Part shown: positions 9,092-28,816 of the stretch, in pieces
Layout: every line of letters starts with the position of its first letter
How positions within the stretch are numbered: position 1 is the first letter of the stretch
Virus record (IMG/VR): IMGVR_UViG_3300028797_000143
Span: 1-64,000 of that record
DNA from: a virus
Lineage: Duplodnaviria > Caudoviricetes
Strand: one strand, 5' to 3'
Length of the DNA stretch: 64,000 nt
Notes under the pieces: model-generated
What the model saw: the letters and a program-made list of their open reading frames with translations, nothing else
Told to the model about the DNA's origin: nothing
Databases searched by the model: none
Program-made: the position numbers and the translations under genes

Positions 9092-12000
9092 TCATAGATA
9101 TTTTGTATTGTCAACGACTTCTGCGAGCTGCTTGCCGAAGTCTTCCTTGATGATACGTATCGCCGTGGAAATCTCGTTGAGGTATATGTTACGCTCCGCA
9201 GCCATCGTCTGGAGTGCTGACAGGGATGCCGTGCTGCTCGTTATCAGCGTTGACATCGTTGTGATGTTCTGTAGTATGACCTTTGCGGTGGCGTTGATGT
9301 CCTCGCCTGAGATTTGGAGGGCTGTGAAACGACCGCTGAGTTCGTCACCCGTCTCTTGGGACATGGTTTGGAAGGAGCGGCCGCTGGCACTTTGCCTGTA
9401 GCTTGCTTCATCCCATCCTAAGACTTTCCTCAGTTCATCTCTTTCTGCTAAGGCCCTGTTGGCAATGTCTTCATACTCGGCTCTCAATGCGGCTTCTTCC
9501 TTCACGTCAATTTTCCCATCGTTCTCCATTGCCTTCTGGAAGTTCTTAAGCCATTTGTCCAACTCCTTTTTGTATGTGTTGGATACAAAGCTGTTGATGA
9601 TGGCCTTTTGCATGTACTTCTCGAAGTTCTCGGAGAAATCTTCAGCTTCGGAATCCATGTCCATAAGAGCACTGGCAAAGTCATCAACGAGAGAATCGAG
9701 ATTCGTTGATGTCAGTTTCTCTACAAACTGATCTTCTATCTCTTTAGCACTCTTCCAATACTCAATATACTCATCCATGTATTGAGCCGCATCCTCATAG
9801 CCCTCGTCGGCATAAGCCTTGATATGAGCGTAAATATCGGGTAGGTCGCGGGCAACCTTATACATCTCTTCACTCGTGAGATTGAAGAACTGTTGGCTTG
9901 TCGTTATTGTCTTATTTACGAGCGCACTTACTCGCTCCCACTCTGCTTTAGAGATTGCCTCGTTTACCTTATAATGAGATGAGTGAGAACCACCAATACC
10001 AAGGAAGCCGTTTGACCATGCATCGGCACTGCGTTGCATCATTTCACGAGTATTAGCTTCTGCTTGCCTGTAATTGTCGAGTATTTGCTTTTTAACATCA
10101 AAAGATTCGCTTAATGAGGCGTCATCCATCTTATCCTTCAGTTCATCGATTGAATATTTCAAAGCCTGATTACTTGCTGTGAGCTTTTCCAAGTCTTCTT
10201 CGAGGTTCCAATCCGAATCACCGAACAAAGGATTACCCTCAGCCCATTTACCGATAGCAGTACCAAGAGTGCGTAGAGAGCCAAGGACGGCCACACCGAC
10301 ACCTACTACATCACCTTCTTGTAATGAGTGAATACCATTGACAGCGTATGTGCTGCTCTCTGCGAAGTCAGACCAGCCTTTTCCGAAACGGGTGTCTTCA
10401 AGACCAAGGTCTTCAAGAGCCGTACTCATGGATTGTACGTTCTTGTCGATAGACTCACATATCTTGGCAACAAAGGATAGTGTCTCTTGGAACTCGGCTC
10501 CCCAATTGCCGCCGCCACCCATACCTTGAAGACCCTCTAAGGCACCAGAAGCCTGTTCCATACCTTCAGATGCCTGTTGCATGCTATTCTCGGCATTGGA
10601 AAGGTTCTTCAAATACTCGGTAATCTGGTCTTGTGAGTAGCCTTTCTTTGAGAGGCTTGTTGATATCTGCTCAGCATTACCTGTATTGATGTCCTTTGAG
10701 GAAATGCCAGTGTTTATCGAAATTTGATTCTGTATCCTAAGAAGGTCTGTAGCGGCCTTAACCTGCTTCTCCTTAGCCTCTAAGACCCTCTCGTTAGCCT
10801 CGGCAATCTTGCGTTCAAGCTGTTCTTGTTTGTCTAATTCAGGCGTTGCAAGGCCGAAGAGCTGCTTCCATGCGCCCTTCCTCTTTTGTATGGCATCGTT
10901 GATGTCGTTAATCTTGTCCGTGAAAATCTTCACGTCTTGGATGGAGATATCCTTACCACTCTTGGCAAGATACTCTTTAATCTTCGAGCGAAGCCTGATA
11001 AGGTACTCTTCACTGAGATTGTCGATGGTCTGGAAGACGTCTTCCCAGTGAATACTGTTCTTGAACTCTTCGACATCCAACTGTTTGAGGGCACTTTCCT
11101 TTTGGCGGTTCAAGGTGAGCTTTTCGCCGATAGTGCTTGCTCGCTTGATTTGCTTTTCAAAACTCTCTGTGATAGCTGCTCTACGCTGTTCGTATGTTCC
11201 ATACTCTTGCAAGAAAGCAAGGATAGCCTTACGTTCATCGTCGTAACGGTCTTCTATGAGCTTGGCGTATTCTTTATTCTCTTTCTCAGTTTGAGCGATG
11301 ACATACTTACGCTTTTCATCAATAAGCTTCTGTTCCTCTTCTGTCCATTTGTTGAGAACCTTAAGACCTTGCCATCCCTTGCCACCTTCGTCAGTAAGCT
11401 CGTAAGGAGAGTTCTTATGTGTCAACTCCCACTGCTTCTTACGCTGCTCGTAGATGGTCTTGTAGACCTCCTCCTGTTGAAGGTTTATGTCGCGTAGCTT
11501 CCTCTTGTGCTCAATATCTCGTGCCTCACGCTCGCGCTCTCCTTCGTTGCGTATGCCAGCAACCAATGCGTCTGCCTCGGCATCCTCGGCTTCACGAGCA
11601 AGCTTCGCCATTTCTTCGGCACGCTTCCACTCTTCTTGCTTTTGTTGGGCAAGTTTCTTGGGGGTGTCATCCTTCTTTTTCTTAGTGTCACCGCCAATAG
11701 ATTGGTAAGCGGATTCCGCGGCCTTAGCAGATTTCTTTATCTCTTCAAAGTGTTCTTGCGTTGCAAGTACAGCACCTTTGGTACCTTTTGAAACAATCTC
11801 CCAGCTATCATCAACCTTTTTGACATAGGTTTCAACTCCATCATCCATATTCTTCTTGATGGAATTAAACGTAGTTTTCTGTTTCTCGAAGTTGTCTTTG
11901 AGTGCCTTGTATGTTTTTTCAGCTCCAACGACGTTTGTCCTTGCACTCAACATACCATTAACACGCTTCAATAGTGACTCGCGGTCATTGTATGTGAGGT

Positions 12001-13813
12001 AGTCTTGAAGTTCGGAAATGAACACCGACTTGTTTTCGTTGCCTTTCTTATTGGCATCACGAAGATGCTTTTGAAGGGCTTTCAACTGTTCATCAGAGTA
12101 TTCGCCAAGAGCACCACCTTCTGCTGTGAAGTCAGTAAGTTTGTTTTCTGTAAGGCTACGACGATACAATTGATCAGATTGTATACTCTTTTGCTGAAAG
12201 TATTTCAACATCTGTCCGGTTGTCGCCGTACCAAACACTCCACCACCTCCTGTTTGCTCCTTAAAAATTCTCTGAATTTCTAATTTGCGCCTTTTGTCTG
12301 CTTCTCTTTGCTCTTTAGTAATACTTAGCGAGACTCCTTCTCTACCCTCTATTGCTTTCAGCTCTTCATATAGGGCCTTACTCTCGTCTCTTGATAATTT
12401 GAGATTATTGGTCTTCTCTTCGCGTTGCATCTTACCGTCGTAAGCCGCTATTTCCTTTTTTAGTTTGAGTATATCACGAAGCTGCCCTTTCTCATCTATA
12501 TACTTCTCGATAATGTCGGGATATCGAGAAATAAGCAAATCCATTGCTTCTTTTCTGTCCTCTGTAGCTGTTGAATCGCTCTGTGCTAAAGAAATTGCAT
12601 CCTCTGTTTGCTTATTATATTCTTTTTGTTGCTCATTAAGATTTTCTAATGTATTCTCTAAATCTTGATTAGCTTTCTCTGCAGTGCTTGTAGCCGTGGC
12701 AAGCTTATAGATTCCAAAAGCAAGTGCTCCGACTGCCATAGCGGCTAATACGTACGGATTCTTTAAGATTGTTGCATTGAGCGCAGCCTGTGCTTTCTCT
12801 TCTAAGACAAGAGCACCATAGTGTAGCTGTTCTGCGGCAGTTAGTTTATACAATCCAGCGACCCTGCCTTTTTCAAGAGTATTTGCAACTATCAAGGCTG
12901 CTTTGTAAATACCATAAGCCACAATCAAGTCTTGTATAACAGCTGCAATCTGTTGGTAGCTATCGACTAATTCAGAGGCATATTTAATACCACCAACTAT
13001 CTGGTCTTGGTATTTCTCTCCAATCTCATTCAACATAGAGGCAAAGCTATCCTCGAATTGACCAATCTCTGCCGAAATATTATTCATCATCTCGCCCATC
13101 AGGTTATGGAATTGTCCACCTTCACCTGTGACGCTATCAAGGACTTTGTTGAGTTGAGAGAATGTTATTGTTGTTCCTACTGCCTGCTCTCCAAGATCTT
13201 TCAACACATCTTTAATCATCACACCCTTTACAGCCCAGCTTTGTAAGCCGTTTGCATCCACGACGCCTGTTGACTTGGCTCTATTGTATGCCGCTACAAG
13301 CTCCATCAAAGGTGCATGTGTTCCCGTAGCCACATTCGACAACTGATCCAATCGCTTGATGATTTCATCGGTCTCGTGTCCGTAAGCAATCATCTGTTGA
13401 CTTGCCTGCGCGAGGTCTTTGAACTCGAACATGTTGTAGTAGGCATAGTCTTTCAATTGCTTAGTGAACTTTGCACCTTCTTCGGCGTTCCCAAGAAAAA
13501 CCTTCATGGAAGATTCGATGTCTTGGAAATAGGAACGCATTTCGATAACCTTCTTAGTAAAGTCAATGATTTCACTCACTCCGAAAGCCAAGCCAGCAGC
13601 AGACGCTATACTCTTTAGGGAGTCGATGATTTTCTTGCTTTCCGTATCAAACGAATTGCCTATATCTTTGACGTCCTTATCAATATGCTTCTTAGTAGCA
13701 TCAATGCTGGATTCGGCCATAGCCGAAGTCCTTTTAATCTGAATTTCAATCCCGTTTAAGGCTTGAATGAAATTCTGATTGTCACCTGTTATGTCGAAAT
13801 GTATGCCTGCCAT
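9092..13813 (-). CDS. Tape measure protein
   Basis: About 1570 aa, helical/coiled-coil, TMP-type N-terminal region; start at MAGIHFD (ATG 13813). Confidence 0.9.
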   Translation of the reverse strand: MAGIHFDITGDNQNFIQALNGIEIQIKRTSAMAESSIDATKKHIDKDVKDIGNSFDTESKKIIDSLKSIASAAGLAFGVSEIIDFTKKVIEMRSYFQDIESSMKVFLGNAEEGAKFTKQLKDYAYYNMFEFKDLAQASQQMIAYGHETDEIIKRLDQLSNVATGTHAPLMELVAAYNRAKSTGVVDANGLQSWAVKGVMIKDVLKDLGEQAVGTTITFSQLNKVLDSVTGEGGQFHNLMGEMMNNISAEIGQFEDSFASMLNEIGEKYQDQIVGGIKYASELVDSYQQIAAVIQDLIVAYGIYKAALIVANTLEKGRVAGLYKLTAAEQLHYGALVLEEKAQAALNATILKNPYVLAAMAVGALAFGIYKLATATSTAEKANQDLENTLENLNEQQKEYNKQTEDAISLAQSDSTATEDRKEAMDLLISRYPDIIEKYIDEKGQLRDILKLKKEIAAYDGKMQREEKTNNLKLSRDESKALYEELKAIEGREGVSLSITKEQREADKRRKLEIQRIFKEQTGGGGVFGTATTGQMLKYFQQKSIQSDQLYRRSLTENKLTDFTAEGGALGEYSDEQLKALQKHLRDANKKGNENKSVFISELQDYLTYNDRESLLKRVNGMLSARTNVVGAEKTYKALKDNFEKQKTTFNSIKKNMDDGVETYVKKVDDSWEIVSKGTKGAVLATQEHFEEIKKSAKAAESAYQSIGGDTKKKKDDTPKKLAQQKQEEWKRAEEMAKLAREAEDAEADALVAGIRNEGEREREARDIEHKRKLRDINLQQEEVYKTIYEQRKKQWELTHKNSPYELTDEGGKGWQGLKVLNKWTEEEQKLIDEKRKYVIAQTEKENKEYAKLIEDRYDDERKAILAFLQEYGTYEQRRAAITESFEKQIKRASTIGEKLTLNRQKESALKQLDVEEFKNSIHWEDVFQTIDNLSEEYLIRLRSKIKEYLAKSGKDISIQDVKIFTDKINDINDAIQKRKGAWKQLFGLATPELDKQEQLERKIAEANERVLEAKEKQVKAATDLLRIQNQISINTGISSKDINTGNAEQISTSLSKKGYSQDQITEYLKNLSNAENSMQQASEGMEQASGALEGLQGMGGGGNWGAEFQETLSFVAKICESIDKNVQSMSTALEDLGLEDTRFGKGWSDFAESSTYAVNGIHSLQEGDVVGVGVAVLGSLRTLGTAIGKWAEGNPLFGDSDWNLEEDLEKLTASNQALKYSIDELKDKMDDASLSESFDVKKQILDNYRQAEANTREMMQRSADAWSNGFLGIGGSHSSHYKVNEAISKAEWERVSALVNKTITTSQQFFNLTSEEMYKVARDLPDIYAHIKAYADEGYEDAAQYMDEYIEYWKSAKEIEDQFVEKLTSTNLDSLVDDFASALMDMDSEAEDFSENFEKYMQKAIINSFVSNTYKKELDKWLKNFQKAMENDGKIDVKEEAALRAEYEDIANRALAERDELRKVLGWDEASYRQSASGRSFQTMSQETGDELSGRFTALQISGEDINATAKVILQNITTMSTLITSSTASLSALQTMAAERNIYLNEISTAIRIIKEDFGKQLAEVVDNTKYL

Positions 13814-13834
13814 TTTTGTCGCTAATCTTGGCGA

Positions 13835-13866
13835 CAAAGATACACGTTGTATTCAATCATCGAATA
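13835..13866 (-). promoter_or_regulatory. Late-type promoter for tail operon
   Basis: TATCTTTG (-7) preceded by TATTCGATGATTGAATA box. Confidence 0.7.
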
Positions 13867-14457: not shown

Positions 14458-14910
14458 ATGTGGGTTATATGGAATAAGTTGATACCCTTTGGTGGGTTCG
14501 AGGCCATGGCAGTGTGGCCGTTTGTCTTTGTCCGCAGGGATAAGGATATTACTGCGAGAGACATCAGGCATGAGAAGATTCATGGTGCGCAGCAGTTGGA
14601 GTTGCTGTTGGTTGGTTTCTTTATTACCGCCGTCCTTGCTGCGATAGGTTGCGGGTGGTGGTCATTGTTGGCCTTGCCGTTGTTCTATTGGGCATATTGT
14701 ATCTGTTGGATTATAGAGCTTGGCCGTTGTTTGAAGGACAAAGAGCGCGGTCAGGCTTCTATTCAATATAAGCCGAGGAATCTGTGGCATAGGGTGGAGC
14801 ACTCTATCATCTTCGAGAGGGAGGCATACTCCATGGAGGGTGACGAGGTGTACCTGAAGCACAGGCCTTGGTTTGCATGGACAGAGTATATTGGCGTCAA
14901 ACCCGTATAG
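14458..14910 (+). CDS. Membrane-associated protein with HExxH motif
   Basis: RHEKIH followed by a hydrophobic segment. Confidence 0.6.
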   Translation: MWVIWNKLIPFGGFEAMAVWPFVFVRRDKDITARDIRHEKIHGAQQLELLLVGFFITAVLAAIGCGWWSLLALPLFYWAYCICWIIELGRCLKDKERGQASIQYKPRNLWHRVEHSIIFEREAYSMEGDEVYLKHRPWFAWTEYIGVKPV

Positions 14911-14911
14911 C

Positions 14912-15424
14912 ATGGAGAAGAGCATAGTGACAAATACATCGCGCGGAATAGCCCTTGGGTTATTTGGAGAAGAGGTCTTTACTCTCATCTATGACCTACG
15001 ATGGCTTGTGCTGTTGAGTATTACTCTTATCATCGCTGACTTCTGGTATGGGATGAGTGAGGCACGGATGAAGAAGGAAAAAGTCAGGTGGAGCAAGGCG
15101 TGGCGCAGGACGGCTAATAAGGTGGTGGACTATATCTGCCTTGTGATGGTGGCAGGCATCTTGGGTGTTGCCATCGGCGAGCCGTTGGGTGTGGGTCATG
15201 TGCAGGTGGCCGCTGTGGTGATGCTGCTGTGCTGTATCTCAGAGCTTAATAGCATCTATGGGCATATCTGTGCCTTACATGGTATGAAGCAGAGGCTCGA
15301 CCTGTGGAAGCTGCTGACAGGCTTGGTGAAGGCCAAGAGCGAGGCGGTGGGAGAGGCTATAGAGGGAGCAGAGATAGAGAGGAAGAAGCCCGAAGTAGAA
15401 TCTTCGGGAGTGGTGGCTGAATAG
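14912..15424 (+). CDS. Holin
   Basis: Several TM helices, charged C-terminus, directly upstream of endolysin; ATG 14912. Confidence 0.75.
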   Translation: MEKSIVTNTSRGIALGLFGEEVFTLIYDLRWLVLLSITLIIADFWYGMSEARMKKEKVRWSKAWRRTANKVVDYICLVMVAGILGVAIGEPLGVGHVQVAAVVMLLCCISELNSIYGHICALHGMKQRLDLWKLLTGLVKAKSEAVGEAIEGAEIERKKPEVESSGVVAE

Positions 15425-15449: not shown

Positions 15450-15884
15450 ATGGTTAAGTTATCAAGGAACTTCACGCTGGAGGAGCTGACGGCGAGCAGC
15501 ACGGCGAAACAGAAGGGCATCAAGAATGTACCCGGTACGCAGGAGGTGGCGTGTTTGACGGCTCTTGCGCAGAACGTCCTACAACCTCTCAGGGATTGGT
15601 GGGGCAAGCCTATCACCATCGGTAGCGGCTATCGCTGTCCTGAGCTGAATAAGGCCGTGGGTGGCGTACAGAACTCTCAACACATGAAAGGTCAGGCCGT
15701 GGACTTGTGCATCGACGGTGACATGGCCAAGGGTAGGAAGTGGTTTGAGTACATCAAGAGCCATTTGACCTTTGACCAGGTTATCTTCGAGCATAACGCG
15801 AAAGGCACGTATTGGGTTCATGTTAGCTTTGACCCGTTTGGGTGCAACAGGAAGCAGGTCATCAACGAACTACTGAAGAAATGA
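15450..15884 (+). CDS. Endolysin, peptidase M15 family
   Basis: SGYRC..LNKAVGG..NSQHMKGQAVD and WVHVS motifs. Confidence 0.9.
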   Translation: MVKLSRNFTLEELTASSTAKQKGIKNVPGTQEVACLTALAQNVLQPLRDWWGKPITIGSGYRCPELNKAVGGVQNSQHMKGQAVDLCIDGDMAKGRKWFEYIKSHLTFDQVIFEHNAKGTYWVHVSFDPFGCNRKQVINELLKK

Positions 15885-15991
15885 GCCCGTGTAAGGATTG
15901 CCCCAAGGTGAGTAACACCATCAACGGGCTTCGCTGCCCTGAACTCGATATGAATGTGGAGTATTGTCTAATGAAACCATGTAAGTTATGA
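15881..15991 (+). CDS. 36-aa Cys-rich peptide (not in ORF track)
   Basis: MSPCKDCPKVSNTINGLRCPELDMNVEYCLMKPCKL; ATGA overlaps with both neighbours. Confidence 0.6.
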   Translation: MSPCKDCPKVSNTINGLRCPELDMNVEYCLMKPCKL

Positions 15992-16569
15992 ATGACCTCG
16001 ACGATTTCTACACCTATGGAGGGTGTTTCCCGCGAATAGCTGCTATGGTGCTGTTCGTTATCATTATGTCTATCATGTTGTGTAGCTGTAAGAGCACAAA
16101 ACAAGTCTCGGAGGAACGCTATACCTCGGAGCAGTTGGTAACAAGATTGGACTCTATGCTACAGGTTAGGTTGGTGACACAGCAGGACAGCTCTTTCAGG
16201 GAGTATGTCGTCAGCCAATTAAAGACCCTACGCGAGAAGAACGACACAAGCCATACTATCGTCGTTGACACTGCAGGTAGGGTAATCAAGGAAACGCTCA
16301 TCATCAGGACAGAGAAGGAATCCAATAGCGAGACGGATAGGAAGGAGAGGGAGGTTATCATGCACAAGTTGGAGGTGATGGATAGCACTCTTGTATCCCT
16401 ACGCTCTCAGATTGAGAGGACTGACACTCTGCTACAGAAGAAACAGGAAACTATTGAAGTGAATAGACTCCATGGCTGGCAGAAGTGGTTGATGTGGACG
16501 GGAGTGGCAGCTATTCTTGGGTTACTTATATTTATAGGATATAAGATATGGAGGCTGTGGCCTCATTAA
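15988..16569 (+). CDS. Putative unimolecular spanin
   Basis: N-terminal signal with lipobox (LCSC) plus C-terminal TM helix, last gene of lysis cassette. Confidence 0.65.
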   Translation: MNDLDDFYTYGGCFPRIAAMVLFVIIMSIMLCSCKSTKQVSEERYTSEQLVTRLDSMLQVRLVTQQDSSFREYVVSQLKTLREKNDTSHTIVVDTAGRVIKETLIIRTEKESNSETDRKEREVIMHKLEVMDSTLVSLRSQIERTDTLLQKKQETIEVNRLHGWQKWLMWTGVAAILGLLIFIGYKIWRLWPH

Positions 16570-16794
16570 GATAAAAGCCCGTGAGGGTGGTTCTAAAAAG
16601 GTAAATGGTTTTTCATTTTAGCTAATTGATTTGATTGATTTCTGGTAAGTTGAGTGTCTATCCTGGTTTGTGAGGAATAGGGATAGTCTTAAAGAAAATC
16701 CCCACCCGAAGAGGTGAGGATAAAGAAGAAACCTTCGTTTGCATTGTTCTTACTTTTGAGTGTGCGCTACAAAGTAAGTAACTATTAAGATAAA

Positions 16795-17031
16795 ATGCAA
16801 ATGAAGGTTTCGGATTTTCTCAAAATTAGCATGGAGATGTTAAAGTTGCTGTCAGCAAATGGCATCAAAATGGATGATCACAGGTATGTGAAAGCGTATG
16901 AGGCTTTTCTTAATATGCGGCGTAATCATGTCAAGTATAGGGTTGCCATAAAGATGATAGCCGATGAGGAGGGAGTGTCGGAGAGGACGTTGGAGCGTAT
17001 CTTCAAGAGGCTTTCTGCGATTGTTAAATGA
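16795..17031 (+). CDS. Small HTH regulator
   Basis: C-terminal IADEEGVSERTLERIFKRL helix-turn-helix. Confidence 0.7.
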   Translation: MQMKVSDFLKISMEMLKLLSANGIKMDDHRYVKAYEAFLNMRRNHVKYRVAIKMIADEEGVSERTLERIFKRLSAIVK

Positions 17032-17089
17032 CGTCAGATGTTGACGGCTGTTCCTTTGTGTTTACTCTTCCATAGGTTGTTTTGTGCTC

Positions 17090-17097
17090 TACCTTTG
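17090..17097 (+). promoter_or_regulatory. -7 promoter element of Cys-rich operon
   Basis: TACCTTTG without TTTG at canonical spacing; TGACG repeats at 17029-17046. Confidence 0.5.
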
Positions 17098-17155
17098 CCC
17101 CTGTCAAAGCGCAATGACAAGGTAATATTATTCACAACACAAACACAAAACAATC

Positions 17156-17689
17156 ATGGAACTGAAAGATCTTCTCGAAATGAAGGCTCTCGAAGGTAGT
17201 GGCATGAGCCCCTACGAGCAGTTCAAGACTCAGCACATTCAGGCTAAGAGCCACACCAGCGGCATCGCCGTGACGGGTCTTGTGACGGGTATCGTGGGTA
17301 CTGTGGCAGGCATCACGGCGTGGATTTTCAATCCGCTGTATAGCAATGCCAAGGCAGGTCAGGCTCGCGAAGCTGCCCTTGCTGCCAAGGAGCTCGCCAA
17401 TGCACAGATTGCTGCATCGCAGCGTCAGCTCGACCAGCTCACCGCCCTGTTTGCCGCCGAGCGTCAGGAGCGCATCAACGGTGACATCACACTGAACGCA
17501 ACCATCAACGACACCGTGAGCGGCCAGCAGGCTTCTACATTGACAGCCACCCAACAGGCCGAACTCGCCGCATCGCAGACTGTGATGACTGGCTTGATGA
17601 CAGGCAAGTACAGCGAGAACCCTCAGCGCGTTACTATCTGGCGTGACGCACAGGCTTGCAACTGCCCCGGCTGCGGATGCAACGGCTAA
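17156..17689 (+). CDS. Hypothetical: Gly-rich TM segment, coiled coil, C-terminal CNCPGCGC
   Basis: ORF track and composition. Confidence 0.75.
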   Translation: MELKDLLEMKALEGSGMSPYEQFKTQHIQAKSHTSGIAVTGLVTGIVGTVAGITAWIFNPLYSNAKAGQAREAALAAKELANAQIAASQRQLDQLTALFAAERQERINGDITLNATINDTVSGQQASTLTATQQAELAASQTVMTGLMTGKYSENPQRVTIWRDAQACNCPGCGCNG

Positions 17690-17785
17690 GCTGAAAAATT
17701 TGGAAGGAATCTGCTTAATGTGTAGGAAACTATGCAAACAAGCAGGTTCCAACCTCCTTAATCTATAACAAAACATACGGCAACA

Positions 17786-18160
17786 ATGTTATGGTTCAAC
17801 AAAGAAAAGAAAAAGAAGATGGAGTTTATACAGAACTTTGTACCCACAAGTAAGGCGCAGCTGATACAGGTGGCCATGATGTATAACAAAGGAGATTTGG
17901 CCAAGGCGCAGGAGATGTTTGACTTCTACGCTAAGAACCTCGACCTCCCTGACTTCGACCCGGTAGCTCCTTCGTTTATGCAACAGATGAAGCGCGAGGC
18001 GACGGGGCTGTTCATGTTCATCAAGGAGAACAAGGACGATTTGAGGCAGGGCTATGAGATGATAAGGTCTGCGATACTGAATAGGGGCGAGCTACCTGAC
18101 TTTCCTGCGGGAGAATCCGCAGGAACGGTAATGGAGGTATTGCCACCAATCAACGAATAA
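17786..18160 (+). CDS. Hypothetical protein (Cys-rich operon)
   Basis: ORF with AT-rich leader. Confidence 0.7.
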   Translation: MLWFNKEKKKKMEFIQNFVPTSKAQLIQVAMMYNKGDLAKAQEMFDFYAKNLDLPDFDPVAPSFMQQMKREATGLFMFIKENKDDLRQGYEMIRSAILNRGELPDFPAGESAGTVMEVLPPINE

Positions 18161-18169
18161 CACGGCAAC

Positions 18170-18388
18170 ATGGAAAAGAAAGAGCTAAAGGGCTTTCCGC
18201 TGTCCTTCAACATATACGCGGAGAATGAGGAAGAGGTGGCTGAGTGTAGAAAGGCTATCATCGCCTTTATAGGGCTTCATGCCTCACAATGCAGGGCTGT
18301 CACGGCGAAGAAGGTGGCGCAGGCTCTCATGAATTGGGACAAGAGCCCATTTGTCAAGAACAAGATTATCCAATACTTCAAAGATTAA
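18170..18388 (+). CDS. Hypothetical protein (Cys-rich operon)
   Basis: Tightly spaced operon gene. Confidence 0.65.
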   Translation: MEKKELKGFPLSFNIYAENEEEVAECRKAIIAFIGLHASQCRAVTAKKVAQALMNWDKSPFVKNKIIQYFKD

Positions 18389-18391
18389 GAT

Positions 18392-18691
18392 ATGGAAACG
18401 AACGAACAGAAACAATTTCAGTGTACGGGCGACTGCCTGAAATGTATTGCGGTACAGCGGCAGTATTGTGCGAGCCAGCACTCTCATGATAGCGTAATGA
18501 TGCTTCGTGAGCTTAGTGAGGCTGTAAAGGCTTTGTCCTCCACGGTGGAGGACTTGAAGGCCAAGATAGAGGCTATACAGGACAATGAAGCCTTGGTGTT
18601 CGACCCGAAGGAAGATGCAGACAACCCATCGGGGAAACCGAAGGGTACACTCATAAAGAAAGCACAGGAAGGGGACGGTGCAGAAGAATAG
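18392..18691 (+). CDS. Hypothetical: CxxxCxxC...C cluster plus coiled coil
   Basis: CTGDCLKC..QYC followed by heptad region. Confidence 0.7.
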   Translation: METNEQKQFQCTGDCLKCIAVQRQYCASQHSHDSVMMLRELSEAVKALSSTVEDLKAKIEAIQDNEALVFDPKEDADNPSGKPKGTLIKKAQEGDGAEE

Positions 18692-18730
18692 ACTCCCCAA
18701 AATAATCAACACACAAAACACAAAAAGATT

Positions 18731-19189
18731 ATGGATTGTAACAACAATGGAAAGACCTCCGTGGTATCGGTCACTACATACCCCGGAGGCACAGCGGCAG
18801 ATGCGAACTATCTGCTCCAACTCGACCACTACACATGTGGCAATCGCAAACTCTGTACGCAGGAGATGTTCCCCGTCACAGCAGACTTGAAGGCAACGCC
18901 AATCGGCAGCCCGGTCTCCATGCCTGTAAATGGAACGCCTCAGTATTGTCAGGAAGTTCTCATCAGCGGTACTTGCACGTACATGCCTTATCAGTGTGGC
19001 TGTCAGTGCAACCCATGTCCTCGCACCGAAAATATCTATTGCACCGTATGCCTGCCTTGCTCGTCTAATGTCACACCGACATTGACCGTAGGCACACCTG
19101 CCGCAGCACCAACAGGCGCGCGGCCATGTAGCAATGTGACCAACTGTGTTGCCATCACGACCGTCATCAACGTGGCTACAGGCGCATAA
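18731..19189 (+). CDS. Cys-rich beta-type protein (14 Cys in 152 aa)
   Basis: Counted in translation; CGCQCNPC core. Confidence 0.75.
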   Translation: MDCNNNGKTSVVSVTTYPGGTAADANYLLQLDHYTCGNRKLCTQEMFPVTADLKATPIGSPVSMPVNGTPQYCQEVLISGTCTYMPYQCGCQCNPCPRTENIYCTVCLPCSSNVTPTLTVGTPAAAPTGARPCSNVTNCVAITTVINVATGA

Positions 19190-19566
19190 TGGAGTGGTTG
19201 GATATTGCGAGCATCGTGTTTGTCTGCGTGACGATGAATCACCTTGGGCTGATAGGAGCAATAGAGGGTGTGATTAGACATCGGATTCCGATTGTCAACT
19301 GCCCTAAATGTTTGTCGTTCTGGACTACGATGGTTTATGGTTGCTATGGCATAGCAAGAAACGGAACGCAGGTGATGTCGGTGCTTGCAATATCCTTCCT
19401 CGCCAGCTATGCGGCTATATGGCTGGAGCTGGCAGAGGGATTCATTGACACTTTATACATGAAGCTGTATGGGAAGATTTACACAACCTCAACCGACACG
19501 TCTGCCTCAGATGCCGAAGGTGGTGATTCCGACGGCACCGTGTCCGACGTGCGACAAAACTGCTAA
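19189..19566 (+). CDS. Membrane protein with CPKC motif (DUF1360-like)
   Basis: Three hydrophobic segments, NCPKCLSFW. Confidence 0.6.
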   Translation: MEWLDIASIVFVCVTMNHLGLIGAIEGVIRHRIPIVNCPKCLSFWTTMVYGCYGIARNGTQVMSVLAISFLASYAAIWLELAEGFIDTLYMKLYGKIYTTSTDTSASDAEGGDSDGTVSDVRQNC

Positions 19567-19594
19567 GAATTCTGTCAGGCGTGGCAGAAAATAG
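19469..19594 (+). CDS. Overlapping 41-aa ORF with CPTC motif
   Basis: MGRFTQPQPTRLPQMPKVVIPTAPCPTCDKTAKNSVRRGRK in an alternative frame. Confidence 0.4.
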   Translation: MGRFTQPQPTRLPQMPKVVIPTAPCPTCDKTAKNSVRRGRK

Positions 19595-19686
19595 CAATGG
19601 AGTTTTATCAGCGTTTCATAAGCGGTTGATTACCAACTGCTAAAATGCTGATAGAAAATTGATAGAAAAAGTTAATATTTATCAAT

Positions 19687-20169
19687 ATGAGCACAGAAGA
19701 AATGAAACAGGAGTTTCGCGAGCTATACGATATGATGGCTCAGTCGAACAATGTGGCCTTCATGCGCATCTTCGGTCAGGTACACAAGGAGATGATGGAT
19801 TGGTTCATCGCCAACAAGCCTACCGAGGCGCAGATGTGGCTGGAGAAGCTGGAGGCTATCAGGTGGAAGAACTACCTGACACCCAAGGAGGCCGACATGA
19901 TTGTGGATGCTATGGAGCCTGCCGCTCCGTGGAGCCGCGACAAGTGGAAGGCTGCGATGGCCGAGCATAACCTGGAGCTGGAGAAAGAGCCTTGCTACAA
20001 CCGATGTGCGCTGTGGGTGACGATGAACATGATAATGTCCGATTCGTCCGACACACTTGCCAAGTACATCAGCGGCGATGATCTCTTCATGGCGGTCTAT
20101 GAGCTTGCCGTTGACAAGCTAACCGACCTTGATAAGAAGTTCAACATAAGGGCTTATTTCGGGTTATGA
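19687..20169 (+). CDS. Helical hypothetical protein (Cys-rich operon)
   Basis: ORF; YN..ALWVTMNM..SD...L.D.D..FNIRAYF pattern. Confidence 0.75.
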   Translation: MSTEEMKQEFRELYDMMAQSNNVAFMRIFGQVHKEMMDWFIANKPTEAQMWLEKLEAIRWKNYLTPKEADMIVDAMEPAAPWSRDKWKAAMAEHNLELEKEPCYNRCALWVTMNMIMSDSSDTLAKYISGDDLFMAVYELAVDKLTDLDKKFNIRAYFGL

Positions 20170-20426
20170 ACTACCGCGAGCTGTTGCGACTATGTGCGTT
20201 GAAGGACATCAGTTGCCGTATGTCCGAGGATGACGTGCGTGCGTTGCGGCAGCTCGCCGAGAAACAAGATGTGATGGACTCCCTACATCGTCAGGAGGCG
20301 GTGCTTAACGACCTCTCCAAGCGTGTAGGGAGCCATCCTTTTGCGTCCGATTTGGTGGCGAATGTTGCGGGCAACGCCGTCACGGAGGGAATTGTGTGGT
20401 TAGCACGAATATTATTCAAGAGATGA
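20166..20426 (+). CDS. Hypothetical, C-terminal amphipathic helix
   Basis: ATGA-coupled to previous gene. Confidence 0.65.
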   Translation: MNYRELLRLCALKDISCRMSEDDVRALRQLAEKQDVMDSLHRQEAVLNDLSKRVGSHPFASDLVANVAGNAVTEGIVWLARILFKR

Positions 20427-20509
20427 GTAAGAGCGACCGATATGAGTTATGGTACATGCTATCAATTGTCTTTGTGATAGTTGTGGCCTTATTGTCTATG
20501 ATTCTATAA
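20423..20509 (+). CDS. 28-aa single-TM peptide
   Basis: MSKSDRYELWYMLSIVFVIVVALLSMIL; ATGA-coupled. Confidence 0.45.
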   Translation: MSKSDRYELWYMLSIVFVIVVALLSMIL

Positions 20510-20545
20510 AGTAGTATTTTTGTCTTACTTTCAAAATTTCAGCAT

Positions 20546-20592
20546 TTTTAACTATAATAATTTGTGTATATGGTAGAAAATCAGTACCTTTG
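20546..20592 (+). promoter_or_regulatory. Strong early promoter P1
   Basis: TTTTAACTA-N6-TTTG-N20-TACCTTTG. Confidence 0.85.
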
Positions 20593-20649
20593 CATATAGA
20601 AAGGAAGGGGAAAGACCCCGAAACCAAGAAACCAATTAAACAGAGAAAA

Positions 20650-27163: not shown

Positions 27164-27340
27164 AGTATTTTAGCGTTTCTTTGGGTTGCATGTTGTTGCA
27201 TAAAATTGTGTTAAAGTTGCTCATTTTCTTGCACTTCCGAATAATGTTGCATACCTTTGCAAAAACTTAATTTATCGGTTGCATTCATCGGTTGCATAAT
27301 CAAGTATGGTCAATCGGTTGCAATTATCGGTTGCAAGAAA

Positions 27341-28816
27341 ATGGTTAAGTGGGAAGAGGTTTATAGGTATGGTGGCGACAGCGTGCGAGGTGCCTTTAGC
27401 GTCCGCGTGGCTGTTGTCCTAAATCGTGCGTCAAGACCTGATGGCGATGGTAGGTATATGGTGGCTGTCAAAGTTACCCAGGGGAATGACAGGAGGTATT
27501 TCATAAATGTCCCCGGAATACGTATGCTCCCAGAGGACTTCGTTGCCATGTGCCGTGAGAGGGACGTGATGAGGGGAAGGTTCAAGAGGTTCGCGGATAT
27601 AGGAGGAAAGGTAACGGGATTCTATGACAGGGTTTGCCATATGGTCGATGACCTCGTTTTCAATGGGTCCTTCGTCTTTGATGATTTCAAGTACAGGTGG
27701 AATGACATAGAGAAGACCAATCTCGTGGAGATAACACCCTATACGTTATGGGAGCAGGTTGCCAAGGAGCGGTCGGCAGGTACGGAGGAGAGTTACCTCA
27801 TAGCCTTAAGGAGGTTCAAGATAGACATGGGTACGAAAATAAGGTTCTGTGACTTCTCCAAGCCTCTCGTGGCGAGGTGGAAGGAGAAGATGCTCAGTGC
27901 AGGTCTCTCGCGTACTACGGCCAATATCTATATCCGTTCCCTACGTGTTGTTCTCAACGATGCCCGAAGGATGGGACAGCTTTCCGATACGCGGGGTGTC
28001 TTCGATGGGCTGTGTATAGGTGGAAGGAACAGCTATAATAGCCGAAAGGAGAAATATCTGTCCGTAGAACAGTGGACGCGCCTATGGCTGTTCTATGAGT
28101 CTAAAGGAGAGGGAAACGAGGTTTATCTGTCATGGAGGGAAGACCAGAAGAAGGACAGGATGGAGGCCTTGGGTATGATGCTCTTCATGTACCTTGCTGA
28201 CGGGATGAACCTGAGAGACGTCGTAAGCCTGAGATATGACGATTACTACTATCAGCATGATCGCAGGCAATTGCATTTCCAGAGGCAGAAGGTCGCGGAG
28301 CGTTCGGGTGCCAAGGTTGTCTTCCCCGTCTTAGAGCCTATACGTATCATCCTCGAAAGACAAGGGGAGAAGGAGGTACGCGGAGGCCTTGTGTTCGGAT
28401 ACCTCAAAGGGAGGGTGAAACTCGACTCACAGACGAAAGAGACCGCCAAGGAGATAAGAAGACTTACGGCCTTGTACAACTCTACGATTGGTGACAGGGT
28501 AGCCCATATCGCCGATGCTATAGGCCTTGACGTACACCCTACCCCCACGTGGTGTAGGCACTCTTTTGCGAGTAACCTCATACAGGCTGGTGTTCCGAAG
28601 GAGTACATCACCGCTTCCATGGCACATAGCAGCGATGATACCACGGATAACTACATAGACATGTATTCCTATGAGCAGATGGTTGACTACAACAGCCGCC
28701 TCCTGGATGACCCTTCGAGGAAGAAGAACAGGGTTCGCGACATCTTCAAGGGCTTCTCCGAAGAGGAGTTGGAAGAGCTGAGGGCACTGATGGGGATGAA
28801 GCAGGATGAAACGTAA
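27341..28816 (+). CDS. int: Tyrosine integrase, Bacteroidales type with arm-binding N-terminal domain
   Basis: RHSFA, SMAHS and catalytic Tyr region; start moved to MVKWEEV, downstream of promoter 27228-27259. Confidence 0.92.
   Translation: MVKWEEVYRYGGDSVRGAFSVRVAVVLNRASRPDGDGRYMVAVKVTQGNDRRYFINVPGIRMLPEDFVAMCRERDVMRGRFKRFADIGGKVTGFYDRVCHMVDDLVFNGSFVFDDFKYRWNDIEKTNLVEITPYTLWEQVAKERSAGTEESYLIALRRFKIDMGTKIRFCDFSKPLVARWKEKMLSAGLSRTTANIYIRSLRVVLNDARRMGQLSDTRGVFDGLCIGGRNSYNSRKEKYLSVEQWTRLWLFYESKGEGNEVYLSWREDQKKDRMEALGMMLFMYLADGMNLRDVVSLRYDDYYYQHDRRQLHFQRQKVAERSGAKVVFPVLEPIRIILERQGEKEVRGGLVFGYLKGRVKLDSQTKETAKEIRRLTALYNSTIGDRVAHIADAIGLDVHPTPTWCRHSFASNLIQAGVPKEYITASMAHSSDDTTDNYIDMYSYEQMVDYNSRLLDDPSRKKNRVRDIFKGFSEEELEELRALMGMKQDET

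Follow-up and report, generated by a model that had tools for sequence, protein, structure and literature searches.

A co-inherited, cysteine-rich operon of Bacteroidales phages that may encode a membrane-anchored, metal-bridged complex

What might a phage accomplish with a compact block of small cysteine-rich and membrane-protein genes that carries its own regulator gene and has no characterised relative? The question is posed by positions 16795-20509 of the window analysed here, a 64,000-nucleotide stretch comprising the first 64 kb of the 88.9-kb IMG/VR phage record IMGVR_UViG_3300028797_000143, which derives from a temperate Prevotella phage. A first-pass annotation had described this region as a self-contained operon of about 11 genes, and the helix-turn-helix (HTH) gene, TGACG repeats, and cysteine-rich and membrane open reading frames (ORFs) on which it drew are all present where it placed them. 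Using sequence, gene order, and predicted structure, we find a plus-strand operon of eight conserved genes, A-H, situated behind a regulator gene, R. The conserved core is smaller than first proposed, consisting of R and A-G together with an overprinted gene, X, with H often present; a total of about 11 requires R, X, and an unconserved transmembrane (TM) ORF to be included as well. We favour, tentatively, a reading in which Bacteroidales phages carry the operon as a self-regulated accessory cassette whose products build a membrane-anchored, metal-bridged complex. The components are as follows.

16795-17031, plus strand: R, a 78-residue HTH regulator with weak matches to HTH families in Pfam and a match to phrog_17790 (E-value 2.8e-8)
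17029-17119, plus strand: control region between R and A, with half-sites, a -7 box, and a palindrome
17156-17689, plus strand: A, 177 residues, with a short N-terminal segment, a glycine-zipper TM segment (approximately residues 36-58), a long coiled coil, and a cysteine tail
17786-18160, plus strand: B, a helical protein of 124 residues in which the alignment shows a conserved PTSK motif and an LPPINE tail at the C-terminus
18170-18388, plus strand: C, a small alpha/beta protein of 72 residues, conserved in all loci
18392-18691, plus strand: D, 99 residues, with an N-terminal C-x3-C-x2-C-x7-13-C knuckle, a coiled coil, and a variable acidic tail
18731-19189, plus strand: E, a 152-residue cysteine-rich beta sandwich with 14 cysteines
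19189-19566, plus strand: F, a 125-residue protein with three TM segments, an NCPKC motif, and an acidic low-complexity tail
19469-19594, plus strand: X, 41 residues, in the +1 frame over the acidic tail of F; a Pro-rich stretch leads to an invariant CPxC and a basic tail
19687-20169, plus strand: G, a 160-residue helical protein belonging to the Pfam family DUF7841
20166-20426, plus strand: H, 86 residues, a coiled coil followed by an amphipathic or hydrophobic helix at the C-terminus, found in roughly half of the loci
20396-20509, plus strand: a 37-residue TM ORF overlapping the end of H

Approximately 50 loci drawn from IMG/VR, metagenomes, and genomes share the order R-A-B-C-D-E-F(X)-G(-H), and across them the identity of E drops to 28-46%, with a minimum of 28%. 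Because the same order is retained in so many related loci, the grouping of these genes is far beyond chance, which bears out the original description of a self-contained, co-inherited operon. Two carriers in the sample are cultured or isolated: the prophage of the isolate Prevotella sp. tc2-28 and the sewage-isolated, cultured Bacteroides phage BS162P1, in which every gene of the cassette is annotated as hypothetical. Several rumen Prevotella metagenome-assembled genomes also carry it, and the recurrence in gut phages anticipated by the first reading is borne out and extends to the rumen, the cassette often lying close to lysis genes. The protein families are large, amounting to 929 clusters for A (all unnamed), 898 for G, and 380 for E, the latter with 48 representatives at 50% identity. 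A natural short form exists at locus L029 (1855-6000), in which R is followed directly by E-F-X-G-H in the absence of A-D, beside an integrase and a small membrane protein. A nucleotide search of the phage collection with positions 16500-20600 and a tblastn search of cultured phages with E each returned no match, and no RNA sequencing run was listed as containing the region.

Within the operon the genes are tightly packed. The F start lies on the E stop codon, the H start lies on the G stop codon (ATGA), C and D are separated by 3 nucleotides, and X overlaps the start of G in locus L001. No signal peptide was read in any product of the operon. The 37-residue TM ORF is a doubtful gene, since it has no equivalent after H in the related loci inspected (L001 and L003). 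Two long antisense ORFs on the minus strand, 17132-17776 (214 residues, opposite A) and 18284-19261 (325 residues, opposite D-F), were rejected as genes, as their frames are not kept open in related loci. A search of the module for further conserved overlapping, antisense, or alternative-frame ORFs found none besides X.

The conserved cysteines fall either into four-Cys sets (the A tail, D, and E) or into two-Cys halves (the F loop and X). A ends in CNCPGCGCNG, with a typical family tail of CxC-x2-4-CxC-NG; cysteines are confined to the last 16 residues in 117 of 120 relatives, and 91 of the 120 have exactly four. The four cysteines of D are kept in all ten aligned loci, including BS162P1. Cysteine makes up 9.2% of E compared to 1.9% of the other ORFs of the window, and 3.3% of the whole module against the same 1.9%. 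An alignment of 33 diverse relatives of E shows an invariant Cys93 and almost invariant Cys36, Cys42, and Cys96 (Cx5C ... Cx2C); the remaining ten cysteines vary between lineages, and the BS162P1 homolog has far fewer. F displays a CxxC-x3-W motif (NCPKC..FW) in its first loop, which is rich in Arg and Lys and presumably cytoplasmic, and an alignment of 45 sequences identifies C38, C41, W45, W78, and Y94 as invariant. The mixture of membrane-anchored and Cys-motif subunits described in the first reading is present.

X is a real overprinted coding frame under purifying selection. All 52 loci examined, among them that of the very distant BS162P1, have a +1 ORF that starts with ATG and extends to a CxxC, in nearly every case CPxC. 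Its ATG is formed by the TAT codon of the invariant Tyr94 of F and the G that follows, and Tyr94 is encoded by TAT in all 47 loci where our script took that ATG as the X start; TAT accounts for 58% of Tyr codons in a sample of window genes. Where F and X overlap, reading in the X frame gives a ratio of nonsynonymous to synonymous polymorphism (pN/pS) of 0.39, compared with 1.46 for the F frame and 1.28 for the remaining one. It is therefore from the conserved ATG-started frame, the TAT codon, and the pN/pS values that we conclude that X is a genuine coding frame: the frame is open, its ATG is conserved, and purifying selection acts on it and not on the host frame. In some loci (L003 and BS162P1) the CPxC lies at or beyond the F stop codon. 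X is absent from the gene-caller table for locus L011 and a sibling contig, and it shows that conserved small proteins are being missed by gene callers in such genomes.

The control region suggests how the operon might be switched. R is preceded by its own -7-like box, TACTTTTG, at 16751-16758, and a homologous small HTH gene lies directly upstream of A in most loci. Between R and A, a half-site TGACGTCA at 17029-17036 overlaps the R stop codon and a second, TGACG, lies at 17042-17046, the half-site class being TGAC(G/A). A host-type -7 box, TACCTTTG, at 17090-17097 is flanked by half-sites and is followed immediately, at the expected transcript start, by the perfect palindrome TGTCAAAGCGCAATGACA (TGTCA-N8-TGACA; 17102-17119), which has no second match in the window. 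Most related loci likewise place the -7 box approximately 65-75 nucleotides before the ATG with the palindrome at once behind it, the palindrome sequence being lineage-specific (for example TGTAACGTTACA and TTGTAAGCTTACAA). The TGAC(G/A) half-sites and the palindrome are likely operator sites for R. R would probably bind half-sites bracketing the host-type promoter, one of which is the palindrome on the transcript start, and by doing so would allow the operon to switch independently of the neighbouring lysis genes and of the gene set downstream. Across the whole window, the Bacteroidetes -7 pattern TAnnTTTG occurs 51 times against 34 expected; its commonest form, TACCTTTG, stands at 17090 ahead of this operon and at 20585 ahead of the downstream set of small genes.

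Family searches gave the operon little by way of known relatives. The window proteins were compared to Pfam, PHROGs, NCBIfam, and PADLOC (2023 library), and 106 diverse orthologues were compared to Pfam and PHROGs. The initial statement that the operon holds no enzyme motifs or assigned function is upheld, as no enzyme family in the four collections matches any operon product. Across the products and their orthologues, DUF7841 and phrog_17790 are the only consistent matches; none of A, B, C, D, F, or H is matched consistently by a Pfam or PHROG family among the 106 orthologues, and a single orthologue matches Saf_2TM (E-value 1.7e-4). NCBIfam yielded no match for the operon proteins of the window, and PADLOC gave matches at chance level only (E-value 0.003 or weaker). 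Among Pfam, PHROGs, and the 106 diverse members, no holin family matched A, F, or H, and the holin of the window is a separate gene. The comparison of F to DUF1360 stayed below threshold (13 bits against a cut-off of 21, E-value 0.1) and covered the CxxC-W stretch only. D was considered as a radical S-adenosylmethionine (SAM) enzyme and rejected: it has 99 residues, its motif falls in the first 26 and is followed by a coiled coil, and there is no Radical_SAM match. Radical SAM enzymes carry CxxxCxxC inside a partial TIM barrel of some 200 residues or more. The two findings that would speak against an operon without assigned function, a lack of co-occurrence elsewhere or matches to known unrelated functions, were both looked for; the gene order is kept, and no product matches a family of known function.

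G is the sole operon product with a match to a curated family. It scores 52.6 bits against PF25223 (DUF7841), above the gathering threshold of 25.2 (E-value 6.3e-14), and all listed G homologues carry this domain. DUF7841 is an uncharacterised Pfam family. Of 401 genomes sampled from the host family, 14 contain it, and a sample of 401 from the phylum yielded 2; within this sampling its distribution is limited to Bacteroidales phages and a few percent of the Bacteroidaceae. A second DUF7841 cassette, often beside an integrase, occurs in Bacteroidaceae genomes (L063-L070) and in the crAss-like phage cr271_1 (L077; NC_055887). It encodes a beta-rich protein of 112-166 residues, a protein of 160-185 residues with a C-terminal coiled coil, a Gly/Tyr/Arg-rich low-complexity protein, the DUF7841 protein, and a protein of about 135 residues with HExxH and a C-terminal CxxC. 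Most DUF7841 copies in the sampled genomes, those of crAss-like phages, and the best-scoring members of the family belong to this second cassette. DUF7841 is all that the two cassettes have in common: when every module family was aligned to it with hhalign, G alone matched, and E shows no relation to its beta protein. Separately, a prophage remnant at L017 (G399:C10, 8665-10215) has a DUF7841 gene directly after a holin-like gene and a truncated DUF5675-like ORF, with the rest of the module absent.

Two of the nine proteins, E and G, have AlphaFold models. That of E (AlphaFold 2; predicted local distance difference test score (pLDDT) 89.5, predicted template-modelling score 0.82) is all-beta with eight strands. 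Foldseek searches of the PDB and BFVD gave E-values above 0.03 and VIA-align a best Z of 4.7, with no convincing relative. The top structural rows for E are alpha-crystallin (HSP20, small heat-shock protein) and CS domains (Z 4.2-4.7, root-mean-square deviation 3.4-5 Å over 80-95 residues), the best superpositions on the alpha-crystallin domain having Z 4.5-4.7 at 3.4-4.9 Å over 81-95 residues. These Z-scores lie below the level usual for chance arrangements, and no sequence similarity accompanies them. The AlphaFold 2 model of G is helical (pLDDT 86), and neither Foldseek against the PDB nor VIA-align returned a convincing relative, the best Z of 5.4 covering only 52 residues. Profile searches of A and G against PDB sequences found nothing, and the ESM Atlas gave no usable match for E or A. 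The cassette is thus without a characterised relative in sequence, and E and G are without one in fold. A literature search on DUF7841, BS162P1, and cysteine-rich Bacteroides phage proteins found nothing relevant; related phage isolations have been described, with no mention of the cassette (PMC12694917).

The gene products are predicted to assemble on the cytoplasmic membrane of the host. A, with its glycine zipper, coiled-coil stalk, and terminal CxC...CxC, and F, with its three TM segments and cytoplasmic CPKC, would serve as membrane anchors, while D, E, X, the helical B, C, G, and H would act as soluble cytoplasmic partners. The cysteine motifs may form metal knuckles of the Zn or Fe type, by which the subunits would be folded or stapled, and F and X may share one site. 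We infer membrane assembly, metal binding, and regulation by R from the features described above, metal binding being read from the motifs. Four-Cys sets and CxxC halves are typical of metal sites. Metal knuckles would be preferred over disulfide cross-links because the conserved cysteines form such sets and halves, because the products have no export signals, and because the additional cysteines of E are gained and lost between lineages; knuckles appear to fit these patterns better than a disulfide "coat" chemistry would in the cytoplasm of a strict anaerobe. Given two integral membrane proteins and tight translational coupling, a membrane-anchored, metal-bridged hetero-oligomer would be the simplest model.

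Several points weigh against this model. The topology of A is weakly predicted: the numbers of Lys and Arg residues flanking its TM segment (2.0 versus 1.2) weakly favour an N-in, C-out orientation, and the positive-inside rule accordingly puts the coiled coil and cysteine tail, again weakly, in the periplasm. With a periplasmic C-terminus, the tail would be unable to meet the cytoplasmic partners D and E and could form disulfides instead. The palindrome could be a short RNA hairpin, binding by R being a prediction, and metal binding, like the contacts between subunits, is likewise predicted. The short form at L029 indicates that the parts may not form one obligate complex. A structure prediction of F and X together with Zn scored 0.00, which gives no verdict and is evidence neither way.

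The surroundings of the operon bear on what such a complex might do. In the window, the tail genes run leftwards on the minus strand, with the tape measure gene at 9092-13837. The operon has the lysis genes on its upstream side and, downstream, the set of small genes and the integrase.

14873-15424, plus strand: holin (PF05105), lysis cassette
15450-15884, plus strand: M15 endolysin, lysis cassette
27257-28816: integrase

Directly after the endolysin, positions 15988-16569 (plus strand) encode a 193-residue protein with an N-terminal signal, a lipobox-like LCSC, and a C-terminal TM segment; it has no family match, and by inspection it appears to be u-spanin-like (a unimolecular spanin). Upstream of the holin, positions 14458-14910 (plus strand) encode a 150-residue membrane protein with an HExxH motif (HEKIH), whose N-terminus matches phrog_15610 ('protease', E-value 3e-21) and whose L002 homologue forms a single fused ORF with a lipoprotein-like, spanin-like portion. 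Elsewhere, the cassette is found at various positions in otherwise different phages. Some of these are integrase-positive; others are complete phages, bounded by terminal repeats, in which Phage_integrase (PF00589) finds no match. The commonest recognisable families among the two nearest ORFs per side in 44 loci are integrase (6), holin (4), M15 peptidase (2), and amidase (1); DUF5675, which may belong with the lysis set, flanks the cassette three times. These neighbours place the cassette in the stretch between late genes and attachment site where accessory genes usually reside.

We rank first, as a possibility that still falls well short of being probable, a role in late-infection envelope control (lysis timing or egress), because the layout and neighbourhood recall lysis control of the T4 type. 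In T4 lysis inhibition, the holin T acts with the antiholins RI and RIII. A resembles T in having an N-terminal segment of approximately 35 residues that is weakly predicted to be cytoplasmic, one TM segment, and a larger Cys-bearing C-terminal domain, and the two sets share small soluble partners and, for the cassette, a frequent position beside lysis genes. They differ in that no sequence or fold similarity was detected, that a holin, an endolysin, and a spanin-like protein are already encoded elsewhere in the window, and that the cassette has nine genes with metal-type cysteine motifs and its own regulator in the operon. The other lysis system invited for comparison is lambda Rz/Rz1, a two-component spanin whose outer subunit is a lipoprotein with a lipobox Cys and whose inner subunit has an N-terminal TM segment and a periplasmic coiled coil. 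The small, Pro-rich, Cys-bearing X in the +1 frame inside a membrane-protein gene and the bitopic coiled-coil A with its C-terminal cysteines recall this pair; A has one TM segment and a coiled coil, in an orientation that is weakly predicted. However, X is embedded in F rather than in A, and the u-spanin-like gene at 15988-16569 is separate. X itself was rejected as an outer-membrane spanin, as it has no lipoprotein signal or lipobox, a polar Pro-rich start, no hydrophobic h-region, and a proline at position -1 of the first cysteine.

Ranked second, and unlikely, is superinfection exclusion or another moron-type envelope function, in which a cassette expressed from its own promoter, in lysogens as well, would form an inner-membrane complex that blocks DNA entry by competing phages or alters the envelope. 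In favour of it are a regulator gene and a host-type -7 box of its own; like a moron, the operon is an autonomous transcription unit placed in the accessory zone between late genes and integrase and found in otherwise different phages. The cassette lies directly beside the integrase in several loci, and two phages whose M15 endolysin is 64% identical to that of the window have no module beside that gene. Yet morons (HK97 gp15, lambda bor and lom) are usually single genes, and known exclusion functions consist of one or two proteins, in contrast to the fixed nine-gene operon found here. Most of the products are, moreover, soluble and cytoplasmic, PADLOC gives chance-level matches only, and the cassette is also carried by the complete phages without a Phage_integrase match and by BS162P1, which was isolated from sewage.

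A virion-associated "stalk and cap", with A as a coiled-coil fibre, E as a Cys-linked terminal cap, and the others as assembly helpers, is more doubtful still. A does possess a long coiled coil with a terminal cysteine cluster, E is a compact and very conserved beta sandwich, and large tail-fibre-like genes precede the cassette on its strand in L011. Against these stand the TM segments of A and F, the separate regulator gene and host-type -7 box, the varying position of the cassette from phage to phage, the natural variant without A-D, and the failure to detect similarity to solved fibre or decoration proteins. The remainder of our expectation falls to some other function.

Very improbable, and weakly refuted, is the original suggestion of a disulfide or metal cross-linked coat, exosporium-like envelope, virion shell, or redox buffer: the abundance of cysteine in E and the clusters in A, D, and F speak for it, but without signal peptides most products would reside in the reducing cytoplasm of an anaerobe, just four of the 14 cysteines of E are conserved across its family, no spore-coat or exosporium family matches in Pfam or NCBIfam, the Prevotella and Bacteroides hosts do not sporulate, and the varying placement in otherwise different phages, with a separate regulator gene and host-type -7 box, suits an accessory module more than a structural core of the virion.

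Returning to the membrane-anchored, metal-bridged complex, a broader proposal is conceivable but more doubtful: the operon and the wider DUF7841 cassettes, the crAss-like ones included, might constitute an unrecognised metal-cluster-stapled inner-membrane apparatus of Bacteroidales phages that governs lysis timing, egress, or exclusion, with the CPxC of the overprinted X completing a shared site with F. Almost none of the accessory genes have been annotated in Prevotella and Bacteroides phages, the dominant phages in viromes of the gut and rumen. The cassette is common among them, with hundreds of protein clusters at 90% identity per component, a fixed gene order, and apparent self-regulation. 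It is also open to direct testing, as it is carried by a cultured pair, BS162P1 on B. salyersiae BSC162, and by the lysogenic isolate Prevotella sp. tc2-28. If it does control lysis, exclusion, or envelope state, the cassette would be part of the general way in which these phages deal with the Bacteroidales envelope.

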